64,000 nt of DNA from Eledone cirrhosa (Eukaryota), in assembly GCA_964016885.1 (NCBI GenBank), contig OZ024753.1, positions 26,350,001-26,414,000 of the forward strand. Direction: 5' to 3'. A model generated the notes under the pieces. It saw only the letters and a program-made list of their open reading frames with translations. It made no database searches and was not told where the DNA came from. The position numbers were made by a program, and so were the translations under genes. Numbering within the stretch: the first letter of the stretch is position 1; each line of letters starts with the position of its first letter. This document shows, piece after piece, positions 3,523 through 57,400 of the stretch.

Positions 3523-3893
3523 AAGACTTGGGATTGGGGTTTAAGTGTAAGTCTAAGGCTTGGGTTGGGGTTTAAGTCTAAGTCTAAGGCTTTGGGTTGG
3601 GGTTTAAGTTTACGGGTTGGGCTAAGGCTTGGGGTTGGCTTTAAGTTGCAAGTCTAAAGCTTGTTATTAGGGTTTAATTCTAAGACTTGGGGTTGTGGTT
3701 TAAGTCTAGGTCTAAGGCTTGGGTTTGGGGTTTAAGTCTAAGTCTAAGGCTTGGGTTTGGGTTTTAAGTCTAAGCCTAAGGCTTGGGGTTGGGGTTTAAG
3801 TCTAAGTCTTGTGGTTGGGGTTTAAATCTAAGGGTTAGGATTTAAATCTAAGGATGAGTGTTGGGGTTTAAGGCTAAGTCTAATGCTTGTGGT
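3523..3893 (+). repeat. 371-bp segment X of the 32-bp satellite, isolated copy
   Basis: AAGACTTGGGATTGGGG...TAATGCTTGTGGT; appears identical by eye to 28848-29218 and 54167-54537, but here it is flanked by unrelated satellites. Confidence 0.93.
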
Positions 3894-5639
3894 AACATAG
3901 GTAACGTATGGGAGAGTGTCATTAACTATGTTAGGAGGGTACCGTTACCTATGTTGGGAGGGTGCCGGTACCTATGTTGGGAGAGTGCCATTACCTATGT
4001 TGGGAGGGTACAGTTACATTCGTTGGTAGAGTGCCATTACCCATGTTAGAAGGGTGCCGTTACCAATGTTAGGAGGGTGCCGTTACCTATGACGGGAGAG
4101 TGCCGTTACCTATGTTGGGAGAGTGCGGTACCTATGTTAGGAGGGTGCCGTTACCTATGTTGGGAGAGTGCCAATGTGGGGAGGTGCTGTTACCTATGTC
4201 AGGATGGAGCCATTACCTATGTTAGAAGGGTGCCGTTACCTATGTTTGGAGGGTGCCGTTACCTATGTTGCGAGGGTGGCGTTACCTATGTTGGGAGGTT
4301 ACATTTACCTATGTTGGGAGGTTGCATTTACCTAAGTTGGGAGAATGCCATTACCTATGTTACGAGGGTCCCGTTACCTATGTTAGGAGGGTGACATTAC
4401 TTATGTTGGGAGGGTGCCGTTACCTATTTTGGAAGGGTGCTTTTACCTATGTTAGGAGGGTGCAATTACCTATGTTGGAAGGGTGCCGTTACCTATGTTA
4501 GGAGTGTGTCGTTACCTATGTTAGGAGAGTGCCGTTACCTATGTTGGGAGGGTTCCCTTACCTATGTTGGGAGAGTACCATTACCTATGTTGGGAGAGTA
4601 CCATTACCTATGTTAGGAGGCTGTCGTTACCTGTTAGGAGTGTGCCATTACCTATGTTGGGAGGGTGCATTTACCTATGTTAGGAGGGTGCCATTACCAA
4701 TGTTGGTAGGGTGCCGTTACTTATGTTGGGAGGGTGCCTCTAGATATGTTAGGAGGGTGCCGTTACCTATGTTAGGAGAGTGCCGTTACTATGTTGGGAG
4801 AGTGACATTACCTATGTTGGGAGGGTGCCATAACCTATTTTGGGAGGGTGCCGTTACCTGTTAGGAGGGTGCCATTACCTATGTTAGGAGGGTACCGTAC
4901 CTATGTTGGGAGAGTCCCGTTACCTATGTTAGGAGGGTGCCGTTGCCTATGTTGGGAGAGTGCCATTACCTATGTTGGGAGAGTGCCGTTACCTGTTGGG
5001 AGGGTGCCGTTACCTATGGTAGGAGGGTATCGTTACCTATGTTAGGAGAGTGTTGATACCTATGTTGGGAGGGTGCCGTTATCTATGTTGGGAGATTGAC
5101 GTTACGTATGTTGGGAGGGTGCCGCTACATATGTTAGGAGAAAGCCGTTATCAATGTCGGGAGAGTGCCATTACCTATGTTGGGAGGGTGCTTTTACCTA
5201 TGTTAGGAAGGTGCCGTTACCTGTTGGGAGGGTGCCGTTACCTATGGTAGGAGGGTATCGTTACCTAGGTTTGGAGGGTGCCGCTACATATGTTAGGAGG
5301 GTGCCGTTCCCCATGTTGGGAGGGTGCCGTTACCTATGTTGGGAGGGTGCCATTACCTATGTTGGGAGAGTTCCATTGCCTATGTTAGGAGGGTGCCGTT
5401 ACCTATGTTGGGAGAGTGCCGTTACCTATCTTAGGAGGGTGCCATTACCTATGTTGGAAGGCTGCCATTACCTGTTGGGAGTGTGCCATTACCTATGTTG
5501 GGAGGGTGCAGTTACCTATGTTGGGAGGGTGCCTCTGCATATGTTAGGAGGGTGGGGTTACCTATGTTGGGAGAGTGTCGTTACCAATGTTGGGAGAGTG
5601 CCATTACCTATGAAAGTTGGGAGAGTGCCATTACCTATG
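3894..5639 (+). repeat. 23-bp G-rich minisatellite (family B), about 75 units, copy 1
   Basis: Consensus CCGTTACCTATGTTGGGAGGGTG with TTAGG/GAGAG/CCATT variants; TACCTAT at 5331 and 5354 gives the 23-bp period. Confidence 0.95.
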
Positions 5640-8104
5640 AAAGCATTAATTTTTTTTTAAATGAAAGCATTTACGTTTTTTTTAAATTTTGAAAATCAGA
5701 AAAACGTAAAAAGATTAATGCAGAAGTATATATTTCGAAAAACCTAAAAAAAATCAATTTTAGAAATTGATTATATAAGGTTTTCGGAAAAAAATTAATA
5801 TGCGTTTTACAAATTGATCTTTTAGGTTTTTTCACAAATTGATCCTTTTACATTTTTGAAAATTTGTGAAAGCATATCGATTCTTTTTCAAAAAACCTAA
5901 AAAAAAAATCAATTTTTGAAATCAGATATAAATAATCTAAAAGTATTAAAAAATTGGTTTTCGAAAAAAAATTAATATGCGTATTTAAAATTGCGTTTTT
6001 CAACGCTGATTTTTTTAGGTTTTTCGAAAAATTTGAAACCAGAAAGTAAATATTTCGAAAACGTTAATTCAAATTTCGAAAATCAGTAAAACCTAAAAAG
6101 ATTAATGCACAAGTGTATATTTCTAAAATACTGTATACTTGTAAAAAAAATCAATTTTCGAAATCGGTTATATAAGGTTTTCGAAATTGATTATATAAGG
6201 TTTTCGAAAAATAATTAATATGCGTTTTTCAAATTGCGTTTTTCAAAACTGCTGATTTTTTTAGGTTTTTCGAAAAATTTGAAACCAAAAAGTAAATATT
6301 TCGAAAACGTTAATTTAAATTTCGAAAATCAGAAAAACCTAAAAAGATTAATACAGAAGTATATATTTCGAAAAACCTAAAAAAAATCAAATTTTCGAAA
6401 TTGATTATATAAGGTATTCGGAAAAAAATTAATATGCGTATTTCAAATTGCATTTTTCGAAACTTCTGACTTTTTTAGGTTTTTCTAAAAGAATTTAATC
6501 TCAAAAATTTGAAACCAGAAAGTAAATATTTCGATTTTTTTAAATTTCGAAAATCAGAAAAACGTAAAAAGATTAATGCAGAAATATTCGAAATATTTCT
6601 AAAAACCTAAAGAAATCAAATTTCGAAAAAAAATTATGCGTTTTTCTAATTGATTTTCTAGGACTTTTCACAAATTGATATTTTTGCATGTTTTGAAATA
6701 GTGTATAAAAAATCAATTTGTGAAAGCATATCAATTCTTTTTCAAAAAACCTAAAAAAATCAATTTTTGAAATCAGATATAAGTATTTCTAAAAGTATAA
6801 AAAAATTGATTATATTAGAATTTCGAAAAAAAATTAATATGCGTTTTTCAAGTTGCCTTTTTCGAAACCTGATTTTTTTTGGTTTTTTCAAAAAGAATCT
6901 AATCTGCAAAATTTGGAACCAGAAAGTAAATATCTCGAAATCATTAATTTTTTATGTTTTTTTTAAATTTCGAAAATCAGAAAAACTTAAAAAAATTGAT
7001 ACAGAAGTATATATTTCGAAAAACCTAAAGTAATCAATTTTCAAATCGATTTTTTTTACATTTTTTGAAATACTGTGTAAAAAATCAATTTGTGATAGCA
7101 TATCAATTCTTTTTCAAAAAACCTAAAAAAATCAATTTTTGAAATCAGATATAAATATTTCTAAAAGTATAAAAAAATTGATTATATTCGAAGAAGAGTT
7201 GAATATGCGTTTTTCAAATTGCGTTTGATACAGATTAATTAGTATTTTCGGAAAATAATCATTTTGTGTTCAAAAATTGATTTTTTTTACGTCTAATTTC
7301 ACTGACAGTGAATGCGTTCACAAATCGATTTTTTGTATTTTACAAATTATTTACTTCTCATAAATTGATCTTTTTACACCTTATCTCGAAAAATGTAAAA
7401 TTGTGACTTTTGTAAATATGTAAGGAATATCAATCTGTGAACACATAATTTTTGAAATGAGAAGTAAATATTTTGTAAAATATAAAAAATCAATTTCTGA
7501 ACGCATTCATTTTCAAAAACACCATTCATTTTCAAAAACAACAGTGTGTTCAAAAATTGATTTTTTTTACATTTAAATGTAAAAAAATCAATTTTTTAAC
7601 ACAAAATGATTATTTTTCGACCTGTTGTAAAAAAACGTAAAAAAATTAATGCTTTCACAAATCTTTCGAAATATTTACTTTCTGATTTCAAATTTTGCAG
7701 ATTAAATTTTTTACGTTTTTCCGAAAAAGAATCAATATGCGTATTGTTCACAGTTTGATATTTTAATATCAATCTGCCTTTCGAAATATTTACTTCTGCT
7801 TTTACAGACGTGTTTTTGAAAATAAATGCCTTTATACATTGATTTTTTGTAATTTTGTATATTTCAAAAATTGCATTTTTCAAAATATTAACTTCTGATT
7901 TCGAAAATTGATTTTTTTTAGAGTTTTCGAAAAAGAATGAATATAAGTTCATAGTCGAAATAATCTGCATTAATGTTTTTACGTTTTGCGTAAGACTGTT
8001 TTTTTTGCATATTTCGAAATACTTTTAATATCTTTGTTTTTCCAATCAATCTGCGTTTACAGATTGAATTTTTTGGCATTTTTCAAGTTGTAAGTATGTT
8101 TTGT
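5640..8104. repeat. AT-rich modular satellite A, copy 1 of the duplicated block
   Basis: Same modules as 1-3522 (GAAACCAGAAAGTAAATAT, AAATTAATATGCGTTTTTC); orientation reverses after about 7620. Confidence 0.9.
7247..7620. repeat. About 370-bp fold-back (nested inverted repeats), MITE-like in shape
   Basis: 7251-7290 pairs with 7579-7617; 7310-7360 pairs with 7458-7508; there is also a local palindrome at 7545-7603 centred on ATTTAAAT. No clear target-site duplication. Confidence 0.7.
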
Positions 8105-11100
8105 TTAGGGTTAGGGTTAGGGTTAGGGTTAGGTTTGGGGTTGGGGTTGGTGTTAGGTTTGGGGTTGGGGTTGGAGTTGGGGTTTACGTCCAAAGTTTGT
8201 GGTTGGGGTTTAAGTCTAAATCTAAGTTTAAGTTTACATCTAAGTCTATGGGTTAGGGTTTAAGTCTAAGTCTAATCCTTTGGGTTGGCGTTTATGTTAA
8301 GTCTAAAGCTGGGGTTTAAGTCTAAGGCTTGGAGTTCCGGTTTAAGTTTAAGTAGAAGGCTTGGGTTAGGGTTTAAATGTAAGCTTTGTGTTGGGGTTTA
8401 AGTCCAAGTCTAAGTTTAAGTTTACGTCTATGGCTAGAGGTTGGGGTTTAAATCCAAGTCTAAGGGTTGGGGTTTAAGTCTAAGTCTAAGTCTAAGGCTG
8501 GGGGTTGGGGTTTAAGTCTAAGGCTTGGGGTTCGGGTTTAAGTTTAAGTCGAAGGCTTGGGGTTAGGTTTAAGTGTAAGCTTTGGGTTGGGGTTTAAGTC
8601 TACGCCTAAGGCTTGAGGTTGGGGTTTAAGTCAAAGACTAAGTTTAAGTTTACGTCTAAGGTTGGGGTTTAGTCTAAGTCTAAGGGTTGGGGTTTAAGTC
8701 TAAGTCTAAGGCTAGGAGTTGGGGTTCAAATCTAAGTCTAACATTTGGGGTTGGGGTTTAAGTCTAAGTCTACAGCTTGCAGTTGGCGTGGGGTTTGGGT
8801 TTAAGTCTAAGGCTATGAGTCTAAGTCTAATGCTTTAAGGCTCTAAGGCTTTAAGTCTAAGTCTAATGCTAGTCTAAGTCTATGATTTGGGATTGGGGTT
8901 TAAATCTATGTCTAAGGCTTGGGGTTAGGGTTTAAGTCTAAGGCTTGTGATTTGGGTTTAAATCTAAAGCTTGGAGTTTAAGATTTGGGTTGAGGTTTAA
9001 GTCTAAGTCTAAGGCTTGGGGTTGGGGTTCAAGTCTAAGTTTAAGACTTGGGGTTGGGGTTTAATTTAAGGCTTGGGGGTTGTCGTTTAAGCCTAAGTCT
9101 AAAGCTTGGGGTTGGCGTTTAAGTCTAAGGCTGGGGGTTAGGGTTTATGTCTAAGGCCTGGTGTTGGGGTTTAAGTCTAAGTCTAAGACTAGGAGTTTGT
9201 GTATAAGTCTAAATCTAAGGCTTGGGGTTGGGGTTTATGTCTAAACCTTAAGACTTGGAGTTGGGATTTAAGTCTTAGTCTAAGGCTTGGGGTTTGGGTT
9301 TAAGTCTAAGTCTAAGGCTTGGGGTTGGGGTTTACATCTATGTCTATGGCTTGGGGTTTAAGTCTAAGGCTTAATGTTGGGGTTTAAGTCTAAGTCTAAG
9401 GCTTGGGGTTGGGGTTTAAGTCTATGTCTAAGACTTGGGGTTGGAGTTTAAGTTTACGGGTTGGGCTAAGGCTTGGGGTTGGGGTTAGGTTTTAAGACTA
9501 AGTCTTGTTGTTAGGCTTGGTGTTGTGGTTTAAGTATAAGGCTTGGGGTTTACCTCTAAGTCTAAGGCTTTGGTTTGGGGTTAGTATCTACGTCTAAGGT
9601 ATGAGGTTGGGGTTTAAGTCTAAGTCTAAGTCTTAGAGTTGGGGTTTAAGTTTACGTCTAAGGCTAGGGGTTGGGGTGTAAGTCTAAGTTTAAGGGTTGG
9701 GGTTTAACTCTAAGTGGTTGGGGTTTATGTCGAAATCTAAAGCTTAGGGTTGGGGTTTAAGTGTAAGTCTAAGGCTTGGTGTTGGGGTTTAAGTCTAAGT
9801 CTAAGGCTTTGGGTTAGGGTTTAAGTTTAAGGCTCAGGATTGGGATTGAGGTTTAAATTCTAAGTCTACGGCTTGTGGTTTAAGTGTAATCTAAGTCTTG
9901 GTGTTAGGGTTTAAGGCTAAGGCTTATGGTTTGGGTTTAAATCTAAGACTTGGAGTTTAAGATTCTAGGTCTAAGATTCTTAGGTCTTAAGAGTCTAAGT
10001 CTAAGGTTTGGGGTTGGGGTTTAAGTCTAAGGTTTGTTGTTAGGGTTTAATTCTAAGTCTAAGGCTAAGAGTTGGTGCTTAAGTCAAAGTGTAAGGCTTG
10101 GGGTTGGGGTTTATGTCTAAGGCTTGTGGTTATGGTTTAATTCTGAGGCTTGGAGTTGGGGTTTAAGTCTAAGTCTAAGGCTTGGGGTTGGGGTTCAAGT
10201 CTAAGTCTAAGGCTTGGAGTTGGGGTTTAAGTCTATGTCTAAGGCTTGAGGTTGGGGTTTAAATCTATGTCTATGGCTTGGGGTTTAAATCTAAGTCTAA
10301 GGCTTAGGGTTGGGGTTTAAATCTAAGTCTAAGTCTTGTGGTTGGGTTTTATGTCGAAGTCTAAACTTGGGGTTGGGGTTTAAGTCTATGTCTAAGGTTT
10401 GGGATTAGGGTTTAAGCCTAAGATTGAGGCTTGGGGTTGGGGTTTAAGTCTAAGTCTATGACTTTGGGTTGGCGTTTAAATCTATGTCTTGGGGTTTAAA
10501 TCTAAGTCTAAGGCTTAATGTTGGGTTGGGCTAAGGCTTGGGGTTGGTGTTAGGTTGTAAGTTTAAGGCTTGTTATTAGGGCTTCATTGTAAGGCTTGGG
10601 ATTGTGTTTTAAGTCTATGTATAAGGCTTAGGGTTTTGTTTAATTCTAAATCTAAGGCTTTTGTTTGGACTTAGTGTCTACGTCTAAGGCTTGAGGTTGG
10701 GGTTTAAGTCTAAGTCTATGTCTTGGAGTTTGGGTTTGGGTTTAAGTTTACGTCTAAGGTAAGGGGCTGGGGTGTAAATCTAAATCTAAGGCATGAGGTT
10801 GGGGTTTAAGTCTAAGTCTAAGTCTAAGGCTTTGGTTTGAGGTTTAAGTCTAAGTCTAAGGCTTGTTGTTGTGATTTAAGTCTAAGTGTACGGCTTGGGG
10901 TTCAGGTTTAAGTCTAAGCCTAAGGATTTGTTTGTCGTCCAACTCTAAAGCTTGGCGTTTGGGTTTAAGTCTAACGCTGGTGGTTATGGTTTAATTCTAG
11001 GTCTTGGAATTGGGGATTACGTCTAAGTCTAAAGTTTGGGGTTGGGGTTTAAGTCTAAGTCTAAGTCTTGAGGTTGGGGTTTAAATCTATGACTTAGGGT

Positions 11101-13815
11101 TCATGTCTAAGTCTAAGGCTTTGGGTTTGGGGTTATGTCTAAGTCTAAGACTTTGGGTTGGTGTTTAAGTTTAAGGCTTGGGGGTTGGGATTTAAGCCTA
11201 AGTCTAATGCTTGGAGTTGGGGTTTAAGGCTAAGGCTTGGGGTTAGGGTTTATGTCTAAGGCTTGGGGTTGGGGTTTAAGTTTAAGTCTAAGGCTAGGAG
11301 TTGGTGTTTAAGTCTAAATCCAGGGCTTGGGGTTGGGGTTTAAGTCTAAGTCTAAGGCTTGGGGTTGGGGTTTACATCTATGTCTATGGCTTGGGGTTTA
11401 AGTCTAAGGCTTAATGTTGGAGTTTAAGTCTAAGTCTAAGGCTTGGGGTTGGGGTTTAAGTCTATGTCTAAGACTTGGGGTTGGAGTTTAAGTTTACGGG
11501 TTGGGCTAAGGCTTGGGGTTGGGGTTAGGTTTTAAGACTAAGTCTTGTTGTTAGGGTATATTTCTAAGGCTTGGTGTTGTGGTTTGACTCTAAGTCTAAG
11601 GCTTTGGTTGGGGGTTAGTGTCTACGTCTAAGGCTTGAGGTTGGGGTTTAAGTCTAAGTCTAAGTTTTAGAGTTGGGGTTTAAATTTACGTCTAAGGCTA
11701 GGGCTTGGGGTGTAAGTCTAAGTTTAAGGGTTGGGGTTGGGGTTTAAGTCTAAGTCTAAGCCTTGGGGTTGGGGTTAGGGTTTAAGTCTAATGCCTTGAG
11801 TTGAGCTTTAAGTCTTAGACTAAGGCTTGGGGTTGGGGTTTATGTCTAAGTCTAAGGCTTGGTATTAGGGTTTAAATTTAAGTCTAAAGCTTCGGTTTGG
11901 GGTTTAAGTCTAATTCTAAGGCTTTGGGTAGAGGTTTAAGTCTACGTCTAAGGCTTGGGGTTGGACTTTAAGTCTAAGTGTTGGGGTTGGAAATTAAATC
12001 TATGTCCAAGGCTTTGGTTTTTGGTTTAAATATAAATGTAAGGCTTGGGGGTTTGTGATTAAGCCTAAGTCTAAGGCGTGGGGTTGGGATTTAAGTCTAA
12101 TACTTGTGGTTAGGATTTAAGTCTAAGGCTTGGTGTTGGCGTTTAAGTCTATGTCTAAGGCTTGGGTTCGGCGTTTAATTTTAAGTCTAAGGCTAGGAGT
12201 TGGTGTTTAAGTCTAAATCTAAGGCTTGGGGTTGGGGTTTATGTCTAAGCCTTGTGGATATGGTTTAATTCTAAGACTTGGAGTTGGGGTTTAAGTCTAA
12301 GTCTAAGGCTTGGGGTTGGGGTTTAAGTCTAAGTGTAAGGCTTAATGTTGGGGTTTAAGTCTAAGTCTAAGGCTTGGGGTTGGGGTTTAAGTCTATGTCT
12401 AAGACTTGGGGTTGGAGTTTAAGTTTACGGGTTGGGCTAAGGCTTGGGGTTGGGGTTAGGTTTTAAGACTAAGTCTTGCTGTTAGGGTATAATTCTAAGG
12501 CTTGGTGTTGTGGTTTGACTCTAAGTCTAAGGCTTTGGTTTGGGGTTAGTATCTACGTCTAAGGCTTGAGGTTGGGGTTTAAGTCTAAGTCTACGTTTTA
12601 GAGTTGGGGTTTAAATTTACGTCTAAGGCTAGGGCTTGGGGTGTAAGTCTAAGTTTAAGGGTTGGGGTTGGGGTTTAAGTCTAAGTCTAAGCCTTGGGGT
12701 TGGGGTTAGGGTTTAAGTCTAATGCCTTGAGTTGAGCTTTAAGTCTTAGACTAAGGCTTGGGGTTGGGGTTTATGTCTAAGTCTAAGGCTTGGTATTAGG
12801 GTTTAAGTTTAAGTCTAAAGCTTCGGTTTGGGGTTTAAGTCTAATTCTAAGGCTTTGGGTAGAGGTTTAAGTCTACGTCTAATGCTTGGGGTTGGACTTT
12901 AAGTCTAAGTGTTGGGGTTGGAAATTAAATCTATGTCCAAGGCTTTGGTTTTTGGTTTAAATATAAATGTAAGGCTTGGGGGTTTGTGATTAAGCCTAAG
13001 TCTAAGGCGTGGGGTTGGGATTTAAGTCTAATACTTGTGGTTAGGATTTAAGTCTAAGGCTTGGTGTTGGCGTTTAAGTCTATGCCTAAGGCTTGGGTTC
13101 GGCGTTTAATTTTAAGTCTAAGGCTAGAAGTTGGTGTTTAAGTCTAAATCTAAGGCTTGGGGTTGGGGTGTAAGTCTAAGTATAAGGGTTGGGGTTTGTG
13201 TTTAAGTCTAAGTCTAAGGCTTGGTGTTGGGGTTTAAGTCTAATTCTAAGGCTTTGGGTAGAGGTTTAAATCTACTTCTAAGGCTTGGGGTTGGACTTTA
13301 AGTCTAAGTGTTGGGGTTGGAAAGTAAGTCTTTGTCCAAGGTTTTGGTTTTGAGTTTAAATATAAATGTAAGGCTTGGGGGGTTTGTGTTTAAGCCTAAG
13401 TCTAAGGCGTGGGGTTGGGTTTTAAGTCTAAGACTTGGGTTTAGGATTTAAGTCTAAGGCTTGGTTTTGGGGTTTAAATCTAAGTCTAATGCTAGTGGTT
13501 GGGTTTTAAGTTATGCTAGTGGTTGAGGTTTAAGTCTAAGTCTAAGGCTTGGGCTTGGGCTTGAAGTCTATGTCTAAGGCTTGGGGTTGGGGTTGAAGTT
13601 TAAATCTAAGGCTTTGGGTTTGGGTTTAAATCTATGTCTAAGGCTTGGGGTTTGGGTTTAAGTCTAACTCTAAGGCTTGGTGTTGGGTTTAAGTCTACGG
13701 CTTGTGGTTATGGTTTAATTTTAAGGCTTGCGGTTGGGGTTTATGTCTAAGTCTAAGTCTTGTGGTTGGGGTTTAAGTCTAACGCTAAGGCTTGGGTTTG
13801 TGGTTTAAGTCTAAG
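8105..13815 (+). repeat. (TTAGGG)4 head followed by 32-bp telomere-like satellite (array S1), copy 1
   Basis: TTAGGG x4 at 8105-8128, then TTGGGG variants, then consensus GGGGTTTAAGTCTAAGTCTAAGGCTTGGGGTT with 26/38-bp variants from TCTAAG gain or loss. Confidence 0.95.
11405..13169 (+). repeat. 931-bp higher-order tandem duplication in S1
   Basis: AGTTTACGGG at 11491 and 12422; AAATTAAATCTATGTCC at 11991 and 12922; a further variant copy 399 bp later (13321). Boundaries approximate. Confidence 0.85.
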
Positions 13816-14060
13816 TTGGATCGTAGTGCGCATGCGCCAAGTTTGGACAGCAGTGCGCATGCGCAGTACGGTCCAACCTTAGCGCATGCGCACTACGGTC
13901 CAACCTTCGCGCATGCGAACTATGGTCCAACCTTAGCGCATGCGCAGTGCTGTCCAACGTTCGCGCATGCGCTGTGCGGTCCGACCTTCGTGCAACGCAT
14001 TACGGTCCAACCTTAGCGCATGCGCAGTGCTGTCCAACCTTGGAGCATGCGCAGTGCGCA
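13816..14060. promoter_or_regulatory. 27-bp repeat array of GCGCATGCGC palindromes (NRF1-like motif), cassette C1
   Basis: Nine palindrome positions (13828, 13855, 13882, 13909, 13936, 13963, 13990, 14016, 14043), six perfect; matches the NRF1/EWG/P3A2 consensus YGCGCAYGCGCR core. The repeat is directly seen; the regulatory role is inferred. Confidence 0.55.
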
Positions 14061-14110
14061 GTGGGCTATTTCCGGTTGTTTCCGGGTATTTCCGGTTATT
14101 TCCGGGTATT
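14061..14110 (-). promoter_or_regulatory. Four 10-bp-phased CCGGAAA (ETS-like) motifs, cassette C1
   Basis: TTTCCGG on + at 14069, 14079, 14089 and 14099; the minus strand reads CCGGAAA(T/C), an ETS GGAA core. Function is inferred. Confidence 0.5.
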
Positions 14111-14522
14111 CAATTAAATTAAATAATATTAAATAAAATAAAATAAAATAAAATAAAATAAAATTAAATTAAATTTTATTTTATTTTAATTTATTTTATT
14201 TTATTTTTATTTTATTTAATTATTTAATTAATTAATTAATTATTTTATTTAATTAATTAATTAATTATTTTATTTAATTAATTAATTAATTATTTTATTT
14301 AATTAATTAATTAATTATTTTATTTAATTAATTAATTAATTAATTTTATTTAATTGATTAATTAATTAAATTAAATTTTAATTAATTATTTAATTAATTA
14401 ATTAATTAAATTAATTAAAATAAATAAAATAAAATAAAATAAAATAAATTAAACTAAATTAAATAATTAATTAATTAATTAATTAATTAATTTAAATTAA
14501 TTTAATTTAATTTAATTTAATT
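14111..14522. repeat. Near-pure AT tract: (AAAAT)n, (TTTTA)n, (TAAT)n, (TTTAA)n, with a 25-bp sub-repeat
   Basis: Very few G/C in about 410 bp; TATTTTATTT at 14241, 14266, 14291 and 14316. Confidence 0.95.
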
Positions 14523-14557
14523 TAACCCTAACCCCAAACCCAAACCACAAACAAACC
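14523..14557 (-). repeat. Truncated telomeric-array stub
   Basis: TAACCCTAACCCCAAACCCAAACCACAAAC matches the start of the large array at 15477 (TAACCCTAACCCCAAACCCGAACCACAAAC). Confidence 0.88.
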
Positions 14558-14745
14558 TTTTATTTTATTTTATTTTATTTTATTTTATTTTATTTTTATT
14601 ATTTTATTTTATTTTATTTTATTTTATTTTATTTCATTTTATTTAATTAATTTATTTATTTATTTTTTATTATTTTAATTCATTTTAATTTAATTTAATT
14701 TAATTTAATTTAATTTAATTTAATTTAATTTAATTAATTTAATTT
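14558..14745. repeat. (TTTTA)n/(TTTAA)n AT microsatellite tract
   Basis: Directly visible pentamer runs. Confidence 0.93.
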
Positions 14746-14898
14746 AAAAAACGAAGCGAAACCGGGGTAACTAAAAAACCAAACGAAACGAAACCTGGGA
14801 ACCTAAAAAACCAAATGAAACGAAACCGGGGAAACTGAAAAACCAAACCAAACGAAACCGGAGAACCTAAAAAATCAAACGAAACGAAACTGGTTTCG
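14746..14898. repeat. 32-bp A-rich tandem repeat (about 4.5 units) ending in a small hairpin
   Basis: Unit approximately AAACCGGGGAACCTAAAAAACCAAACGAAACG; it ends in CGAAAC-TG-GTTTCG (14885-14898). Confidence 0.88.
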
Positions 14899-14899
14899 G

Positions 14900-15147: not shown

Positions 15148-15197
15148 GTGGGCTATTTCCGGGTGTTTCCGGGTATTTCCGGTTATTTCCGGGTATT
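15148..15197 (-). promoter_or_regulatory. Four 10-bp-phased CCGGAAA (ETS-like) motifs, cassette C2
   Basis: TTTCCGG at 15156, 15166, 15176 and 15186, after the shared GTGGGCTA leader. Confidence 0.5.
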
Positions 15198-40223: not shown

Positions 40224-40224
40224 G

Positions 40225-45470: not shown

Positions 45471-48400
45471 TTAGGGTTAGGGTAAGGGTTTGGTTTTGGG
45501 TTAGGGTTAGGGTTAGGGTTAGGGTTAGGGTTAGGTTTGGGGTTGGGGTTGGGGTTGGAGTTGGGGTTAGTGTTGCGGTTGGAGTAGGGGTTTATGTCTA
45601 AATTTGGGGTTGGGGTTTAAGTCTAAATCTAAGTTTAAGTTTACGTCTAAGTCTAAGGGTTAGGGTTTAAGTCTAAGTCTGAGGCTTAGGGTTGGGGTTT
45701 AAGTCTAAGATTTGGGGTTGGGTTTTAAATTTAAGTCTAAGGCTAGGAGTTGGGGTTCAAATCTAAGTCTAACCTTTGGGGTTGGGGTTTAAGTCTAAGT
45801 CTAAAGCTTGAAGTTGGGGTTCAAGTCGAAGGCTTGGGGTTAGGGTTTAAGTGTAAGCTTTGGGTTGAGGTTTAAGTCTTCGCCTAAGGCTTGAGGTTGG
45901 GGTTTAAGTTTAAGTCTAAGTTTAAGTTTACGTCCAGGGGTTGGGGTTTAGTCTAAGTCTAAGGGTTGAGGTTTAAGTCTAAGGGTTGAGGTTTAAGTCT
46001 AAGTCTATGTCTAAGGCTGGGGGTTGGGGTTTAAGTCTAAGTCTAAGCCTTTGGGTTGGCGTTTATGTCTAAGTCTAAGGCTTGGGGATGGGGTTTAAGT
46101 CTAAGGATTGGGGTTCGGGTTTAAGTCTAAGTCTAAGGCTAGGAGTTGGGGTTCAAATCTAAGTCTAACCTTTGGGTTTCGGGTTTAAGTCTAAGTCTAA
46201 AGCTTGCAGTTGGCGTTCATGTTTAAGTCTAAGGCTTGGGTTACGGTTTAAGTCTAAGGCTTGGTGTTGGCTTTAAGTCTAAGTCTAATGCTAGTGGTTG
46301 AGGTTTAAGTCTATGTCTATGATTTGGGGTTGGGGTTTAAATCTATGTCTAAGGCTAGGGGTTGGGGTTTAAGTCTAAGTCTAAGGCTTGCGTTTGTAGT
46401 TTAAGTCTAAGTCTAAGGGTTGGTTTAGGATTTAAGTCTAAGGTTAGGGTTTAAGTTTAAGTCTCAGGATTGGGATTGAGGTTTAAATTCTAAGTCTAAG
46501 GCTTGTGGTTTAAGTCTAATCTAAGGCTTGGGGTTAGGGTTTAAGTCTAAGTCTAAGGCTTGGGGTTGGGGTTTAAGTCTAAGGCTTGTGGTTTGGGTTT
46601 AAATCTAAAGCTTGGAGTTGGGGTTTACGTCTAAGTCTAAAGTTTGGGGTTGCGGTTTCAGTCTAAATCTAAGTTTAAGTTTAAGTCTATGTCTAAGGGT
46701 TTGGGTTTAAGTCTAAGTCTAAGTCTAAGGCTGTGGGTTGGGATTTAAGTCTAAGTCTAAGCCTTTGGGTTGGCGTTTATGTCTAAGTCTAAGGCTTGGG
46801 ATGGGGTCTAAGGCTAGGAGTTGAGGTTCAAATCTAAGTCTAACCTTGCAGTTGGCGTTCAAGTCTAAGGCTTGGGATTTGGGTTTAATTCTAAGGCTTG
46901 GTGATGGGGTTTAAGTCTAAGGCTTGGGGTTCGTGTTTAAGTCTAAGTCTAAGGCTAAGGCTTAGGGTTGGGGTTTAAATCTATGTCTAAAGGTTGAGGT
47001 TGGAATTGAAGTCTAACGCTAAGGCTTGGTGTTGGGTTTAAGTCTACGGCTTGTCGTTATGGTTTAATTCTAAAGTTTGGAATTGGGGTTTATGTCTAAG
47101 TATAATGCTAGTGGGTGGGGTTTAAGTCTAAGATTAAGAATTGGGGTTGGGGTTTAAGTCTAAGTCTAAGGCTTGGGGTTCGGGTTTAAGTCTAAGTTTA
47201 AGGCTTGGGTTGTGGTTCAAGTCTAAGTCTAAGGCTTGTGGTTGGGGTTTAAGTCTAAGGCTTGGGGTGAGGGTTTAAGTTAAAGTCTCAGGATTGGGAT
47301 TGGGGTTTAAATTCTAAGTCTAAGGTTTAAGTATAATCTAAGGCTTGGGGTTAGGTTTTAAGTCTAAGTCTAAGGCTTGGGGTTGGGGTTAAGTCTAAGG
47401 CTTGTGGTTTGGGTTTAAATCTAAGGCTTGGAGTTGGGTTTTACGTCTAAGTCTAAAGTTTGGGGTTGGGGTTTAAGTCTAAATCTAAGTTTAAGATTAT
47501 ATCTAAGTCTCAGGGTTGGGGTTTAAGTCTAAGTCTAAGGCTAGGAGTTGGGGTTCAAATCTAAGTCTAACCTTGCAGTTGGCGTTCAAGTCTAAGGCTT
47601 GGGGTTTGGGTTTAAGTCTAAGGCTTGGTGTTGGCTTTAAGTCTAAGTCTAATGCTAGTGGTTGAGGTTTAAGTCTAAGTCTATGATTTGGGGTTGGGGT
47701 TTAAATCTATGTCTAAGGGTTGGTGTTGGGGTTTAAATCTAACTCTAAGATTTGGGGTTGGGGTTTAAGTCTAAGTCTAAGGCTTGTGGTTGAGGTTTAA
47801 GTCTAAGGCTTGGGGTTCGGGTTTAAATCTTAGTCTAACTCTTGTGGTTGGGGTTTAAGTCTAAGTCAAAGGCTTGGGTTTGTGGTTTAAGTCTAAGTCT
47901 AAGGGTGGTTTTAGGATTTAAGTCTAAGGCTTGGGGTTAGGGTTTAAGTTTAAGTAACAGGATTGGGATTGAGGTTTAAATTCTAGTCTAAGGCTTGTGG
48001 TTTAAGTCTAATCTAAGGCTTGGGGTTAGGGTTTAAGTCTAAGTCTAAGGCTTGGGGTTGGGATTTAAGTCTAAGTCTTGTGGTTTGGGTTTAAATCTAA
48101 GGCTTGGAGTTGGGGGTACGTCTAAGTCTAACCTTTGTGGTTGGGGTTTAAGTCTAAGTCTAAGGGTTGGTTTAGGATTTAAGTCTAAGGCTTGGGGCTA
48201 GGGTTTAAGTTTAAGTCTCAGGATTGGGATTGAGGTTTAAATTCTAAGTCTAAGGCTTGTGGTTTAAGTCTAATCTTAGGCTTGGGGTTAGGGTTTAAGT
48301 CTAAGTCTAAGGCTTGGGGTTGGGGTTTAAATCTAAGGCTTGGAGTTGGGGGTACGTCTAAGTCTAACCTTTGGGGTTGGTGTTTGAGTCTAAGTCTAAA

Positions 48401-51400
48401 TCTCTAAGGCTTGGGGTTGGGATTTAAGTTTTAGTCTAATGCTTGGGGTTAGGGTTTAAGTGTAAGCTTTGGGTTGGGGTTTAAGTCTACGCCTAAGGCT
48501 TGAGGTGGGATTTAAGTCTAAGTCTAAGTTTAAGTTTACGTCTAAGGCTAGCGGTTGGGGTTTAGTCTAAGTCTAAGTGTTGGGGTTTAAGTCTAAGTCT
48601 AAGGCTGGGGGTTGGGGTTTAAGTCTAAGTCTAAGCCTTTGGGTTGGCGTTTATGTCTACGTCTAAGGCTTGGTGATGGGGTTTAAGTCTAAGGCTTGGG
48701 GTTCGTGTTTAAGTCTAAGTCTAAGGCTAAGACTTAGGGTTGGGGTTTAAATCTATGTCTAAAGGTTTAGGTTGGGTTTAAGTCTAACTCTAAGGTTTGG
48801 TGTTGGGTTTAAGTCTACGGCTTGTGGTTATAGTTTAATTCTAAGGCTTGGAATTGGGGTTTATGTCTAAGGCTTGGAATTGGGGTTTATGTCTAGTGGA
48901 TGGGGTTTAAGTCTAAGACTAAGAATTGGGGTTGGGGTTTAAGTCTAAGTCTAAGGCTTGGGGTTAGGTTTTACGTCTAAGTCTAAAGTTTGGGGTTGGG
49001 GTTTAAGTCTAAATCTAAGTTTAAGATTATATCTAAGTTTAAGGGATGGGTTTTAAGTCAAAGTCTGAGGCTTGGGTTGGGGTTTAAGTCTAAGTCTAAG
49101 GCTAGGAGTTGGGGTTCAAATCTAAGTCTAACCTTTGGGGTTGGGGTTTAAGTCTAAGTCTAAGTGTAAGGCTGGGGGTTGGGGTTTAAGTCTAAGTCTA
49201 AGCCTTTGGGTTGGCGTTTATGTCTAAGTCTAGGGCTTTGGGTTACGGTTTAAGTCTAAGGCTTGGTGTTCGCTTTAAGTCTAAGTCTAATGCTAGTGGT
49301 TGAGGTTTAAGTCTAAGTTTAAGGCTTAGGTTTGGGGTTTAAATCTATGTCTAAGGGTTGGTGTTGGGGTTTAAATATAACTCTAAGATTTGGGGTTGGG
49401 GTTTAAGTCTAAGTCTAAGGCTTGTGGTTGGGGTTTAAATCTAAGGCTTGGTGTTCGGGTTTAAATCTAAGTCTAAGTCTTGTGGTTGGGGTTTAAGTCT
49501 AAGTCTAAGGCTTGGGTTTGTGGTTTAAGTCTAAGTCTAAGGGTTGGTTTAGGATTTAAGTCTAAGACTTGGGGTTAGATTTTAAGTTTAAGTCTCAGGA
49601 CTGGGATTGAGGTTTAAATTCTAAGTCTAAGGCTTGTGGTTTATGTCTAATCTAAGGCTTGCGGTTAGGGTTTAAGTCTAAGTCTAAGGCATGGGTCGGG
49701 GTTTAAGTCTAAGGCTTGTGGTTTGGGTTTAAATCTAAGGCTTGGAGTTGGGGTTTACGTCTAAGTCTAAAGTTTGCGGTTGGGGTTTAAGTCTAAGTCT
49801 AAAGCTTGAAGTTGGGGTTCAAGTCTAGGGCTTGGGGTTGGTGTTTAAATTTAAGTCTAAGGCTAAGAGTTGGGGTTCAAATCTAAGTCTAACCTTTGGG
49901 GTTGGGGTTTAAGTCTAAGTCTAAAGCTTGAAGTTGGGGTTCAAGTCTAAGGCTTGGGGTTAGGGTTTAAGTGTAAGCTTTGGGTTGGGCTTTAAGTTTA
50001 CGCCTAAGGCTTGAGGTTGGGGTTTAAGTCTAAGTCTAAGTTTAAGTTTACGTCTAAGGCTAGGGGTTGGGGTTTAAGTCTAAGTCTAAGTCTAAGGCTG
50101 GAGGTTGGGGTTTAAGTCTAAGTCTAAGCCTTTGGGTTGGCATTTATGTCTAAGTCTAAGGCTTGGTGATGGGGTTTAAGTCTAAGGCTTGGGGTTCGTG
50201 TTTAAGTCTAAGTCTAACGCTAAGGCTTAGGGTTGGGGTTTAAATCTATGTCTAAATGTTGAGGTTGGGGTTTAAGTCCAACTCTAATGCTTGGTGTTGG
50301 GTTTAAATCTACGGCTTGTGGTTATGGTTTAATTCTAAAGCTCGGAATTGGGGTTTATGTCTAAGTCTAATGCTAGTGGGTGGGGTTTAACTCTAAGACT
50401 AAGAATTGGGGTTGGGTTTTAAGTCTAAATCCAAGGCTTGGGTTTCGGGTTTAAGTCTAAGTCTAAGGCTTGGGGTTGTGGTTTATATCTAAGTCTAAGA
50501 TTTGTGGTTGTGGTTTAAGTCTAATGGCTTGGGGTTCGGGTTCAAATCTAAGTCTAAGTCTTGTGGTTGGGGTTTCAATCTAAGTCTGAGGCTTGGGTTT
50601 GTGGTTTAAGTCTGAGTCTAACGGTTGGTTTAGGATTTAAGTCTAAGGCTTGGGTTTAGGGTTTAAGTTAAAGTCTCAGGATTGGGATTGGGGTTTAAAT
50701 TCTAAGTCTAAGGCTTGTGGTTTAAGTATAATCTAAGGCTTGGGGTTAGGGTTTAAGTCTAAGTCTAAGGGTTGGGGTTTAAGTCTAAGGCTTGTGGTTT
50801 GGGTTTAAATCTAAGGCTAGGAGTTGGGTTTTACGTCTATGTCTAAAGTTTGGGGTTGGGATTTAAGTATAAATCTAAGTTTAAGATTATATCTATGTCT
50901 AAGGGTTGGGGTTTAAGTCTAAGTCTGAGGTTTGGGGTTCGGGTTTAAGTGTAAGCTTTGGGTTGGGGTTTAAGTCTACGCCTAAGGCTTGAGGTTGGGG
51001 TTTAAGTCTAAGTCTAAGTTTAAGTTTACGTCTAAGTCTAAGGGTTGGGGTTTAAGTCTAAGTCTGAGGCTTGGGGTTGGGGTTTAAGTCAAAGTCTAAG
51101 GCTTGGGGTTAGGGTTTAAGTCTAATGCTTGGGGCTAGGGTTTAAGTCTAAGTAGAAGGCTTGAGGTTAGGGTTTAATTGTAAGCTTTGTGTTGGGGTTT
51201 AAGTCTACGCTTAAGGCTTGAGGTTGGGGTTTAAGTCTAAGTCTAAGTTTATGTTTACGTCTAAGGCTAGGGGTTGGGGTTTAGTGTAAGTCTAGGGTTG
51301 AAGTTTAAGTCTAAGTCTAAGTCTAAGGATGGGGGTTGGGGTTTAAGTCTAAGTCTAAGCCTTTGGGTTTGGTGTATATGTCTAAGTCTAAGGCTTGGGA

Positions 51401-54400
51401 ATGGGGTTTAAGTCTAAGGCTTGGGGTTCGGGTTTAAGTCTAAGTCTAAGGCTTGGAGTTTGCGCTTAAGTCTAATCCTTAGGCTTGGTGTTGGTGTTTA
51501 AGTCAAGGTCTAAAGCTTGAGGTTTAAGTATAATCTAAGGTTTGGGGTTAGGGTTTAAGCCTAAGTCTAAGGCTTGGGGTTGGGGTTTAAGTCTAAGGCT
51601 TGTGGAGTTGGGTTTGACGTCTAAGTCTAAAGTTTGGGGTTTAAGTCTAAGTCTGATGCTTGGGGTTGGGGTTTAAGTCTAAGTCTAAGACATGGGGTTG
51701 GGGTTCAAGTCTAAGTCTAAGGCTTGGGGTTGGGGTTTAAGTCTAAGTCTAATTCTAATGGTTGGGGTTTAAGTCTAAGTCTAAGGCTTAATGTTGGGGT
51801 TTAAGTCTAAGTCTAAGGCTTTGGTTTAGGGTTAGTGTCTATGTCTAAGGCTTGAAGTTTGGGTTTAAGTCTAAGTCTAAGTCTTGGAGTTGGGGTTTAA
51901 ATTTACGTCTAAGGCTAGGGGTTGGGGTGTAAGTCTAAGTCTAAGCTTGGGGTTGGGGTTTAAATCTAAGTCTAAGCCTTGTGGTTGGGGTTTAATTCTA
52001 AGTTTAAGTGTTGTGGTTAGGGTTTAAGTCTAAGGCCTGGAGTTTGGTTTTACGTCTAAGTCTAAGGCTTGGGGTTGGGGTTTAAGTTTAAGTCTAAAGC
52101 TTCCGTTTGGGGTTTAAGTCTAATTCTAAGGCTTTGGGTAGAGGGTTAAGTCTATGACTAAGGCTTGGGGTTGCGGTTTAAATCTAAGTCTTATGCTTGT
52201 GGTTGGGGTTCAAGTCTAAGTCTAACGCTTGCGCTTGGGCTTCAAGTCTAACTCTAAGGCTTGGGCTTGGGGTGTAAGTCTAAGACTAAGGCTTGTGGTT
52301 GGGGTTTAAATCTATGTCTGAGGCTTGGGGTTTAAGTCTAAGTCTAAAGCTTAATGTTGGGGATTAAGTTTAAGTCTAAAGCTTGGGTTCGGGTTTAAGT
52401 TTAATTCTAAGGCTTGGGGTTTAGGTTTAAGTCTAATTCTAAGGCCTGGGGTTGGTATTTAAATCTAAGTCTAAGGCTTGGGGTTGGTGTTTAAGTTTAA
52501 GTCTAAGGCTAGGAGTTGGTGTTTAAGTCAAAGTTTAAGGCTTGGGGCTGGGGTTTATGTCTAAGGCTTATGGTTATGGTTTAATTCTGAGGCTTGGAGT
52601 TGGGGTTTAAGTCTAAGTCTAATGCTAGTGGTTGGGGTTTAAGCCTAAGTCTAAGGCTTGAGGTTGGGTTTTAAATCTATATTTATGGCTTGGGGTTTAA
52701 ATCTAAGTCTAAGGTTTAAGGTTGGGGATTAAGTCTACGTATAAGACTTGTGGTTGGGTTTTATGTCGAAGTCTAAACTTGGGGTTGGGGTTTAAGTCTA
52801 TGTCTAAGACTTGGGATTGGGGTTTAAGTGTAAGTCTAAGGCTTGGTGTTGGGGTTTAAGTCCAAGTCTAAGGCTTTGGGTTGGGGTTTAAGTTTACGGG
52901 TTGGGCTAAGGCTTGGGGTTGGCTTTAGGTTGTAAGTCTAAAGCTTGTTATTAGGGTTTAATTCTAAGGCTTGGGGTTGTGGTTTAAGTCTATGTATAAG
53001 GCTTGGTGTTGGTGTTTAAATCTAAGTCTAAGTCTTGGAGTTGGTATTTAAGTCTAAGTCTATGTTTTGGGGTTGGGGTCTAAGTCTTATGCTTGTGGTT
53101 GGGGTTCAAGTCTAAGTCTAACGCTTGTGCTTGGGCTTCAAGTCTAACTCTAAGGTTGGGCTTGGGGTTTAAGTCTAAGTCTAAGGCTTGTGGTTGGGGT
53201 TTAAATCTATGTCTAAGGCTTGGGGTTTAAGTCTACGTCTAAAGCTTAATGTTGGGGATTAAGTCTATGTCTAAGGCTTAAGGTTGGGGTTTATGTCTAA
53301 GTCTAAGACTTGGGGTAGGGTTTAAGTCTAAATCGAAAGCTTGGGGTTAGGGTGTAAGTGTAAGTCTAAGGCTTGGATTTGGGGTTTAAGTCTAAGTCTA
53401 AGGCTGGGGGTTGGAGTTTAAGTCTAAGTCTAAGCCTTTGGGTTGGCGTTTATGTCTACCTCTAAGGCTTGGGTTGGGGTTTAAGCCTAAATCTAAATCT
53501 TGGGGTTGGGCTTTAAGTTTAAGTCTAAGGCTAGGAGTTAGGGTTCAAGTTTAAGTCTAAGGCTTGGTGTTTGGGTTTAAGTCTAAGTCTTAGGCTTATA
53601 ATTGGGGTTTAAGTCTAAGTCTACGACTTTGGGTTTGGGTTTAAGTCTAAGTCTAAGTTTAGGGGTTGGGGTTTAAGTTTACGTCTAAAGCTAGGGATTG
53701 TGGTTTAAATCTAAGCCTAAGCTTGTGTTTATGGTTCAATGCTAAGGCTTGTAGTTGGGGATTACGCCTAAGTCTAAAGCTTAGGGTTGGGGTTTAAGTC
53801 TAAATCTGTGGATTAAGGTTGGGGTTTAAATCTATGTCTATGTCTTGGGGTTTAAGTCTAAGTCTGAGGCTTAAGGTTTGGGTTTAAGTCTAAGTCTAAG
53901 GCTTGGTGTTGTGGTTTGGGGTACGGATTTAAGTCTAATTCTAAGGCTTGTGGTTGGGGTTTAAGTCTAAATCTAAGGCTTGGTGTTGGGGTGTATGTCT
54001 AAGTCTAAGGCTTGGATTTCGGGTTTAAGTCTAAGTCTAAGGCTTGGGGTTGGGGTTTAAGTCAAGGTCTAAGGCTTGGGTTTGGGGTTTAAGTCTAAGT
54101 CTAAGGCTTGGGTTTGGGGTTTAAGTCTAAGCCTAAGGCTTGGGCTTGGGGTTTAAGTCTAGGTCTAAGACTTGGGATTGGGGTTTAAGTGTAAGTCTAA
54201 GGCTTGGGTTGGGGTTTAAGTCTAAGTCTAAGGCTTTGGGTTGGGGTTTAAGTTTACGGGTTGGGCTAAGGCTTGGGGTTGGCTTTAAGTTGCAAGTCTA
54301 AAGCTTGTTATTAGGGTTTAATTCTAAGACTTGGGGTTGTGGTTTAAGTCTAGGTCTAAGGCTTGGGTTTGGGGTTTAAGTCTAAGTCTAAGGCTTGGGT

Positions 54401-57400
54401 TTGGGTTTTAAGTCTAAGCCTAAGGCTTGGGGTTGGGGTTTAAGTCTAAGTCTTGTGGTTGGGGTTTAAATCTAAGGGTTAGGATTTAAATCTAAGGATG
54501 AGTGTTGGGGTTTAAGGCTAAGTCTAATGCTTGTGGTTGTGGTTTATGTCTAAGTCTAAGGCATGGGGTTAGGGTTTAAGTCTAAGTCTAAGGCTTGGGG
54601 TTAGGATGTGAGTATAAATATAATGCTTGGCGTTAGGGTTTAAGTCTAAGTCTAAGGCTTGTGCTTGGGGTATAAGGCTAATTCTAAGGATAAGGTTGGG
54701 GTTCGGGTTTAAGTCTAATTGTTGTGGTTAGGATTTAATTCTAAGGCTTGGAGTTGGGGTTTACGTCTAAGTCTAAAGCTTGGGGTTGGGGTTTAAGTCT
54801 ATGTCTAAGGCTTGGGGTTGGAGTTTAAGTCTAAGTCTAAGGCTATGCGTTGGGGTTTAAGACTACGTCTAAGGCCTGGGGTTGGTATTTAAATCTAAGT
54901 CTAAGGCTTAGGGTGGAGGTTTAAGTCTAAGTCTAAGGCTTGGGGTTGGGTTTAAGTTTAAGTCTAAGGCTAGGAGTTGGTGTTTAAGTCAAAGTCTAAG
55001 GCCTGGGATTGGGGTTTATGTCTAATGCTTGTGGCTATGGTTTAATTCTGAGGCTTGGAGTTGGGGTTTAAGTCTAAGTCTAATGCTAGTGGTTGGGGTT
55101 TAAGTCTAAGTCTAAGGCTTGGGGTTGGTGTTCAAGCCTAAGTCTATGGCTTTGGGTTGGGGTTTAAGTCTAATGCTTGGGGGTTGGGGTTTAAGCCTAA
55201 GTCTAAAGCTTGGGGTTGGGTTTTGAGTGTAAGGCTTGGGGTTAGGGTTTATGTCTAAGTCTTGGTGTTTGGGATTATGTCTATGACTAAGCCTTTGGGT
55301 TGTGGTTTAAGTCTAAGTCTAAGATCTGGGGTTGGTATTTAAATCTAAGTCTAAGGCTTGGGGTCGAGGTTTAAGTGTAAGTCTAAGGCTTGGGGTTGGT
55401 GTTCAAGTCTACGTCTAAGGCTTTGTGTTGGGGTTCAAGTCTACGTCTAAGGCTTGAGGTTGGGGTTTAAATCTATGTCTATGGCTTGGGGTTTAAATCT
55501 AAGTATAAGGCTTAAGGTTGGGTTTAAATCTAAGTCTATGGCTTCTGTTTGGGTTTTATGTCGAAGTCTCAACTTGGGGTCGGGGTATAAGTCTAAGTCT
55601 AAGGCTTGGGGTTGGGGTTTAAGTCTAAGTCTAAGTTTTGGAGTTGGGGTTTAAGTCTAAGTCTTAGCCTTGGTGTTGGGGTTTAAGTCTAAGTTTAAGG
55701 CTTGTGGTTGGGGTTTAAGTCTAATTCTAAGGCTTTGGGTTGAAGTTTAAGTTTACGGATTGGGCTAATGCTTGGGGTTGGGGTTAGGTTGTAAGTCTAA
55801 GGCTTGTTATTAGGGTTTAATTCTAAGGCTTAGGGTTGTGGTTTAAGTCTAAGTCTAAGGCTGGCGGTTGAGGTTTAAATCTAAGTCTAAGCCTTTGGGT
55901 TGGCGTTTATGTCTGCGTCTAAGGCTTGGGGTTGGGGTTTAAGTCTAAATCTAAGGCTTGGGGTTGGGGTTTAAGTGTAAGTCTAAAGCTAGGAGTTGGG
56001 GTTCAAGTCTAAGTCTAAGGCTTGGTGTTTGGGTTTAAGTCTAAATCTAAGGCGTGTGGTTGGGGTTTAAATCTATGTCTAAGGCTTGGGGTTTAAATCT
56101 AAGTCTAAGGCTTAAGGTTGGGGTTTAAGTCTACGTCTAAGGCGTGTGGTTGGGTTTTATGTCGAAGTCAAAACATGTGGTTGGGGTTTAAGTCTATGTC
56201 TAAGGTTTGGGATTGGGGTTTAAGTCTAAGTCTAAGGCTTTGTGTTGGTGTTTAAGTTTACCTGTTGGGCTAAGACTTGGGTTTGGGGTTAGGTTGTAAG
56301 TCTAAAGTTTGTTATTAGGGTTTAATTCTAAGGCTTGGGGTTTTGGTTTAAGTCTATGTATAAGGCTTGGGGTTGGGTTTAATTCTAAGTCTAAGGCTTT
56401 GGTTTGGGGTTAGTGTCTACATCTAAGGCTTGAGGTTGGGGTTTAAATCTAAGTCTAAGTCTTTGTGTTGGGGTTTAAGTTTACGTCTAAGGTAAGGGGT
56501 TGGTGTGTATGTCTAAATCTAAGGCATGGGGTTGGGGTTTAAGTCTCAGTCTAAGGCTTGGGGTTGGGGTTTAAGTCCAAGTGTTGGGGTTGGGATTTAA
56601 GTCTATGTCTAAGGTTGGGGTTTAAATCTAAGTCTAATGCTAGTGGTTGGGTTTTAAGTCTAAGTCTAAGGCTTGGGGTTGGGGTTTAAATCTATGTCTA
56701 AGTCTTGTGGTTGGTGTTTACGTCTAAGTCTCAGGATTGGGATTGGGGTTTAAAAATCTAAGTCTAAGGCTTGTGGTTGGGGTTTCAGTCTAAATCTAAT
56801 GGTTGGGATTTAAGTCTAAATCTGAGGCTTAGGGTTGGGGTTTAAGTCTAAGTCTAAGGCTAGGAGTTGGGGTTCAAATCTAAGTCTAACCTTTGGGATT
56901 GGAGTTTAATTCTAAGTCTAAAGCTTGTAGTTGGGGTTCAAGTCTAAGTCTAAGGCTTGATTTTGGGGTTTAAGTCTAGTCTAATTTTAAGTTTACGTCT
57001 AAGTCTAAGGGTTGGGGTTTAAGTCTAAGTTTGAGGCTTGGGGTTGGGGTTTAAGTCTAAGTCTAAGGCTTTGGGTTGGGGTTAAAGTCTAAGTCTAAGG
57101 CTTGTGGTTAGGGTTTAGGTCTAAGTTTAGGGGTTGAGGTTTAAGTTTACGTCTAAATCTAGGGGTTGGGGTTTAGTCTAAGTCTAAGGCTTTGGGTTGG
57201 GGTTTAAGTCTATGTCTAAGGCTTGGCGTTTGGGTTTAAGTCTAAGGCTTGAGTTTATGGTTTAATTCTAAGGCTTGTAGTTGGGGATTACGTCTAAGTC
57301 TAAAGCTTGGGGTTGGGATTTAAGTCTAAGTCCAAGGCTTGAGGTTGGGGTTTAAATCTATGTCTATGTCTTAGGGTTTAAGTCTAAGTCTGAGGCTTAA

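Follow-up and report, generated by a model that had tools for sequence, protein, structure and literature searches.

A tandem duplication with a 25.3-kb unit, bracketed by three copies of a 371-bp satellite segment (X), was identified in a 64,000-bp stretch of repeat DNA from Eledone cirrhosa (assembly GCA_964016885.1, contig OZ024753.1, positions 26,350,001 to 26,414,000 of the forward strand), hereafter referred to as the window. The origin that we favour, albeit tentatively, is that X was copied out of its satellite into a site between an AT-rich flank (A) and a 23-bp minisatellite (B), and that recombination between the two X copies then duplicated the interval between them.

Geometry of the duplication and its junctions

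The arrangement described in the initial annotation, a tandem amplicon with X at its two ends and in its middle, was confirmed. The best self-match of the window (megablast, single high-scoring segment pair) aligned positions 3523-29218 with 28848-54537 over 25,696 columns at 99.953% identity, the copies differing by six mismatches and one gap, a 6-bp indel. The matching stretches overlap by 371 bp, which places X at 3523, 28848 and 54167 (X1, X2 and X3, respectively; coordinates of all features are given in Table 1), and the order along the window is A, X, unit, X, unit, X and satellite (S), with the copies head to tail. With periods of 25,325 and 25,319 bp, the array comprises two full units plus X. 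No N was found among the 64,000 bases and there is no gap at the join between the copies; flank A (1-3522) lies outside the unit and is single-copy within the window. This three-X pattern is present in the sequence and is not a matter of chance. Furthermore, the copies are arranged head to tail between directly oriented homologous repeats, and the junction repeat X2 combines the left flank of the distal repeat with the right flank of the proximal one, both as expected of tandem duplication through non-allelic homologous recombination (NAHR) or single-strand annealing (SSA).

The three X copies show no pairwise differences, and the next best paralog of X is 86% identical. Their surroundings agree with the earlier description of X1 as standing in foreign context, X2 as hybrid and X3 as flanked by satellite on both sides: X1 has AT-rich DNA to its left and the 23-bp minisatellite to its right. 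The additional claim that X3 is the native copy, and thus the donor, is weakly suggested by both of its edges being crossed in four of 39 satellite alignments among the matches listed. The join between A and X is blunt, with 0 bp of leftward extension against the native flank, and A ends there in register with its own paralogs. The junction between X and B contains, as filler, 14 bp of B in inverted orientation, and the second occurrence of this junction (29218) is identical to the first (3893), filler included. The identity of X1 with the other copies extends to the last base at both edges, leaving no diverged margin. It should be added that, as the X copies do not differ at all, there is no switch of repeat-specific variants by which a crossover could be marked, and that identity over 371 bp bounds the divergence of X only to less than about 1%.

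As a control, 127 tiled 371-bp segments of the same satellite were compared with the window from which unit copy 1 had been excluded. Their best partners had a median identity of 85.7% (n = 127); 33 segments reached at least 95%, every one of which belonged to a pair of adjacent tandem duplications, at offsets of 931 and 2379, and none of the 127 had a near-identical partner at a distance. We also compared the left flank, 1-3522, with the AT-rich part of the unit (A'), where the best match was 87.6% over 330 bp. The left flank is of the same family as A' and is not a unit remnant.

Divergence between the two copies

The substitutions lie at 6087, 12479, 12666, 18326, 20324 and 21079, and the 6-bp indel, a telomere-type unit, lies near 18861 (all in copy-1 coordinates). 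Polarity was set by paralogs within the window, using at most 40 contexts per site. Three changes are derived in copy 1 (6087, 12479, 20324) and four in copy 2 (12666, 18326, 21079 and the loss of 6 bp); transitions account for four of the six substitutions, and all 53 homopolymer runs of at least 6 bp have the same length in both copies. The 3:4 split of derived changes, the transitions and the unaltered homopolymers seem unlike consensus error, and the differences look like real mutations.

Copy divergence amounts to 7/25,690, or 2.7e-4 (95% interval 1.1-5.6e-4). The seven differences are not clustered (Kolmogorov-Smirnov P = 0.40), and they therefore point to no particular place for a crossover or a conversion tract. 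This divergence fits two young paralogs and, equally well, two close alleles. The duplication had been called very young, and the low divergence is in keeping with that, yet it dates the event only from above: if the exchange took place between homologs, the seven differences would predate the duplication and the age that they give would be an upper bound.

Public sequence data

Six public runs matched positions 1-8100, namely three contig sets of one sample, sharing 0.35-0.40 of the words, and three restriction-site-associated DNA (RAD) runs of other samples. Four of the six were compared with 1-8100, RAD runs X5 and X6 being left out (run numbers are not to be confused with those of the X copies). 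RAD run X4 was uninformative, with 249 aligned reads of which 96% continued into unlike sequence. From the contig sets, 24 records out of 10,659 were listed; record 11 of run X2 spans the junction between B and A'.

Within the compared stretch, 6087 is the sole difference between the copies. Both copy letters occur there in one sample: T in two of the three runs (X2 and X3), and A, on a locus-specific flank, in each of the three. A diverged allele was also considered as the source of the letters at 6042, 6070 and 6087; this was rejected, as the paralog at +246 has the same letters, and 6042 and 6070 were dropped as evidence of alleles. The paralogs form a 102-bp pair within A' (6005-6106 and 6251-6352), differing at three sites in copy 1 and two in copy 2, and contigs whose path mixes the two members of the pair can pass for an allele.

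At four further sites (4200, 5538, 6362 and 7186) the sample carries a version absent from both window copies, seen in two or three of the three runs with depths of 19-34. For the three substitutions among them, a search requiring six matching letters to the left, with the insertion at 7186 excluded, found no close in-window context carrying the variant letter. Four such sites in 4,578 bp compare with 1.25 expected at the copy-to-copy rate (P = 0.04), and this excess implies that the two copies differ less from one another than either does from the version in the sample. We read the sample as either another individual with two single-copy haplotypes, one of them bearing the copy-1 letter, or the assembled individual with three versions of this stretch, and either reading fits a real, non-fixed duplication.

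Origin of the duplication and alternative explanations

In the proposed course of events, which corresponds to the first of two models put forward in the initial annotation and fits best of the readings considered, a 371-bp piece of satellite would have been copied during repair between the AT-rich flank and the minisatellite. We take this step to have been a non-homologous templated insertion because of the blunt join between A and X and the inverted 14-bp filler between X and B. Its outcome would have been a pair of perfect direct repeats, each of 371 bp, at a distance of 25.3 kb, and NAHR or SSA between them, on sister chromatids or homologs, would then have duplicated the interval, as the hybrid nature of X2 suggests; the reciprocal product would be a deletion or a 25.3-kb circle. 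Recombination between direct repeats is a well-known process and no new mechanism is needed.

Each step resembles events in other systems. In yeast, 390 bp of perfect homology were enough for head-to-tail duplications with hybrid junctions during re-replication-induced gene amplification (PMC3536649). As described there, the product has the same order as here, i.e. repeat, interval, hybrid repeat, interval and repeat at the original locus, with homology of similar size (390 bp there, 371 bp in X). Unlike the Ty or URA3 pieces of that source, the repeats in the window are satellite fragments, the identity of X1 to X3 hides the crossover point, and the interval has no recognisable gene; the likeness covers the geometry, whereas re-replication and selection belong to the yeast system. 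For the first step, local copy-and-paste jumps with inverted junctions have been catalogued in cancer genomes (PMC7025897). In the local templated insertions or local 2-jumps of that catalogue, too, a short local template is copied to a site close by, and of the two non-homologous junctions involved one holds a small inverted piece; in contrast to those events, the insertion in the window would be a first step whose one-insertion product was not observed. In mutation-accumulation lines of Arabidopsis, change in centromere satellites was measured to proceed through homology-directed conversions and tandem duplications of kilobase size (10.1101/2025.06.02.657473). The 931- and 2,379-bp duplications of the window are of similar size to the insertions reported there (mean 1,870 bp), whereas the 25.3-kb unit exceeds that size about tenfold and contains several unrelated repeat families, and the junction between X and B breaks the single-monomer periodicity.

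Several results weigh against the favoured origin. The identity of the X copies sets an upper bound on their divergence, and the order of the two steps is consequently not dated. Among the 24 contig records listed, none spans the A-X or X-B junction, and a single-copy, X-bracketed precursor was not observed. Depth was taken from 17 clean records, after exclusion of three in minisatellite B, three on the paralog path and one at a strand-switch joint. Mean contig depth was 33.4 in the unit (12 records) and 27.5 in the flank (five records), a ratio of 1.22 (bootstrap 1.10-1.33; 1.33, 1.06 and 1.29 per run), which falls short of the 1.5 that a heterozygous duplication would give, and of the 2 for a homozygous one, although contig depth is not a copy number and the sample is perhaps another individual than the assembled one. 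Furthermore, the G+C content of the records (0.16-0.21 in the flank, 0.21-0.31 in the unit) could alone explain a ratio of 1.2. At 6087, a depth model with two units at 1:1 (coefficient of variation, CV, 0.20) outperformed three (0.46) and four units (0.66) in run X2, one depth value being obtained by subtraction, and two and three units performed equally in run X3 (CV 0.09 vs 0.09); two units at 1:1 are also what two haplotypes of a single-copy locus would give. The initial annotation had named single-copy depth as a sign of an assembly artefact; the ratio of about 1.2 in this one sample leans against a fixed duplication. The duplication is probably not homozygous in the contig sample, and it is likely not fixed in the species.

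These data bear most directly on the explanation by a false (heterotype) duplication, in which the locus is single-copy and flanked by X on either side in each homolog, and X3 of one haplotype became joined in the assembly to X1 of the other; the seven differences would then be heterozygous sites and only X2 would be artificial. It would account for a depth ratio short of 1.5 or 2 and for T and A at 6087 occurring at about 1:1 in run X2 and summing to the neighbouring depth, a symmetric split of derived changes is expected of two alleles too, and the best-matching public sample may be the assembled one. Half depth and single-copy k-mers are given as signs of such artefacts (PMC9516828), and the window resembles the cases in that source in having adjacent near-identical copies and may do so in single-copy k-mers and a depth that is not doubled in the sample tested. 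The sign of missing depth gain over unique flanks, with copy-specific k-mers at haploid depth, is, however, compatible in run X2, undecided in run X3, and confronted with ratios above 1 in runs X1 and X3. False duplications usually have a gap between the copies, according to the same source, whereas here the join has none, the boundaries fall on a true internal repeat and the sample examined is perhaps not that of the assembly. The copies end exactly on X, while overlapping contig ends would more likely have been merged over the 25.7-kb match, and the resolved repeats of 246, 931 and 2,379 bp point to accurate long reads, which should pass a repeat of 371 bp with ease. If the sample is the assembled one, the third version seen at the four sites goes beyond one diploid single-copy locus; in the case of another individual, nothing about the assembly can be learned from the depth. 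To join two haplotypes falsely would agree with the depth, yet one more paralog of near identity would be required. On balance, we regard a false duplication as rather unlikely, though as an explanation to be taken seriously.

Growth of an array or rolling-circle copying is, in our estimate, an unlikely source. Here a non-homologous junction between X and B would have made a tandem or a 25.3-kb circle (B to X) that was copied more than two times, and a later deletion, or invasion by a broken end of A, would have left only X of the leftmost pass. The same non-homologous junction does occur twice, between successive units, as this explanation predicts. Telomeric circles are known, and the unit carries a 4.6-kb telomere-type array; partial third copies also arise in this region, the nested 2,379-bp duplication (see below) sitting on an older, diverged third unit. 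As worded in the initial annotation, with the leftmost unit truncated at 3522, the model is weakened: the left flank is no unit remnant, so that truncation from within a unit is not supported and would have to start outside the array. Further unit remnants upstream were not found within 1-3522, and the native left flank would also have to be removed or bypassed; the array form appears to need three events rather than two. Moreover, copies that were identical at birth would have taken time to gather seven changes, with X keeping its sequence throughout, which is not improbable given an expectation of 0.1 change over 371 bp, and two units with T and A at 1:1 require a hemizygous sample, which predicts a depth ratio of 2 and not the 1.22 seen. 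In its most elaborate form, excision through the X-B junction would have released a 25.3-kb circle bearing the telomere-type array, a broken AT-rich end would have invaded this circle at X, and the circle would have turned over more than twice before its resolution into the native satellite; we give a very low probability to such germline rolling-circle reintegration of a composite heterochromatin block that still segregates beside single-copy alleles. It is equally doubtful that an older ectopic satellite fragment between A and B was made identical to X3 by gene conversion or crossover, without any de novo insertion. A-type DNA beside satellite is indeed old in the region (8009-8329 vs 20058-20419) and non-allelic conversion is frequent in satellite arrays (10.1101/2025.06.02.657473), but the identity of X1 runs to the last base at both edges with no diverged margin, and old junctions between A-type DNA and satellite carry a TTAGGG seed that the A-X join lacks.

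Repeat composition of the unit

The unit appears to be eukaryotic satellite DNA, a mosaic of repeats with no recognisable gene (Table 1), and its TTAGGG-type repeats would suggest a heterochromatic identity. Ten open reading frames of at least 150 aa, all located within B or the telomere-type array, were set aside as read-throughs of repeats, no protein-library search being made. The Rfam search of the window DNA returned no matches, the four satellite motifs were not found in the literature search, and the 23-bp motif had no matches in metagenome contigs.

Table 1 Features of the 64,000-bp window
Feature	Position	Strand	Description
X1	3523..3893	+	371-bp piece of 32-bp satellite, foreign context
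X2	28848..29218	+	Hybrid junction copy; satellite left, minisatellite B right
X3	54167..54537	+	Inside continuous 32-bp satellite; presumed donor
Inverted piece of 23-bp minisatellite	3893..3906	-	14 bp, at the X-B junction; first base common to X
Left flank A	1..3522	.	AT-rich patchwork repeat, both orientations, GC ~0.20
Unit copy 1	3523..28847	+	25,325 bp, counted from X1
Unit copy 2	28848..54166	+	25,319 bp
Right flank S3	54538..64000	+	32-bp satellite continuing; single copy in window
B	3909..5639	+	23-bp minisatellite, 76 copies
A'	5640..8104	.	AT-rich patchwork repeat, family of A; internal 102-bp paralog pair, offset 246
Short TTAGGG/GGGTTG seed, then S1	8105..13816	+	Degenerate hexamer-based 32-bp satellite; 931-bp tandem duplication inside
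Spacer	13817..15476	+	Two blocks of 27-bp GCGCATGCGC repeat with 10-bp CCGG repeat, AT microsatellites, 32-bp repeat
Degenerate telomere-type array	15477..20058	-	(TAACCC)n on the + strand, 766 units, 42% perfect hexamers, 4.6 kb
Older paralog of A'-end/TTAGGG junction, then S2	20059..28847	+	Satellite array
Nested 2,379-bp tandem duplication	57628..62822	+	437-bp segment three times (57628, 60007, 62386)

The succession of an AT-rich end, a pure TTAGGG seed and degenerate 32-bp satellite occurs twice per unit (8009-8329 and 20058-20419), the older copy of the A'-end/TTAGGG junction having 284 of 318 aligned letters identical. Such a junction looks like a site of telomere addition from which the satellite may have decayed. 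The G-rich telomere-like arrays alternate in direction over positions 8105-20273 (and 33430-45590): the 1.66-kb spacer lies where the 32-bp satellite and the (TAACCC)n array run towards each other, and arrays diverge from a 94-bp AT-rich piece at 20058-20152. These alternating directions may reflect old inversions or end fusions. The telomere-type array has exact internal repeats of its own, of 246, 309 and 1,333 bp, between 16790 and 19791. Within the spacer region, blocks 13815-14393 and 14901-15479, in which the 27-bp GCGCATGCGC repeat is followed by the 10-bp CCGG repeat, are 87% identical and adjoin telomere-type DNA. These blocks bear a resemblance to the NRF1 and ETS sites known from subtelomeric promoters, yet they are located at the 3' ends of both G-rich arrays.

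Other duplications in the same arrays

Recent tandem duplications of 931 and 2,379 bp share the arrays with the 25.3-kb unit. In the 2,379-bp case, nested in the right flank, 57628-60443 repeats at this offset with nine differences, and the three copies of the 437-bp segment show three, three and six pairwise differences; the older third unit on which it sits is 83-88% identical. The geometry is again one of three copies, on a scale about ten times smaller, and three-copy brackets are therefore not peculiar to the large unit. Eight of the nine differences are T/G or A/C transversions, as compared with four transitions among six substitutions in the large duplication, a contrast in spectrum that is not significant (P = 0.09).

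Implications

The process concerned is turnover of heterochromatic repeat DNA and implies no function. Should the duplication prove false, it would warn that assemblies can retain a join without a gap across a repeat of 371 bp. If it is real, the locus offers a clean snapshot of a short copied piece of satellite seeding a much larger duplication and thereby moving several repeat families together. It would then be useful for illustrating how heterochromatin grows and, provided that alleles with one and two copies segregate, as a marker.

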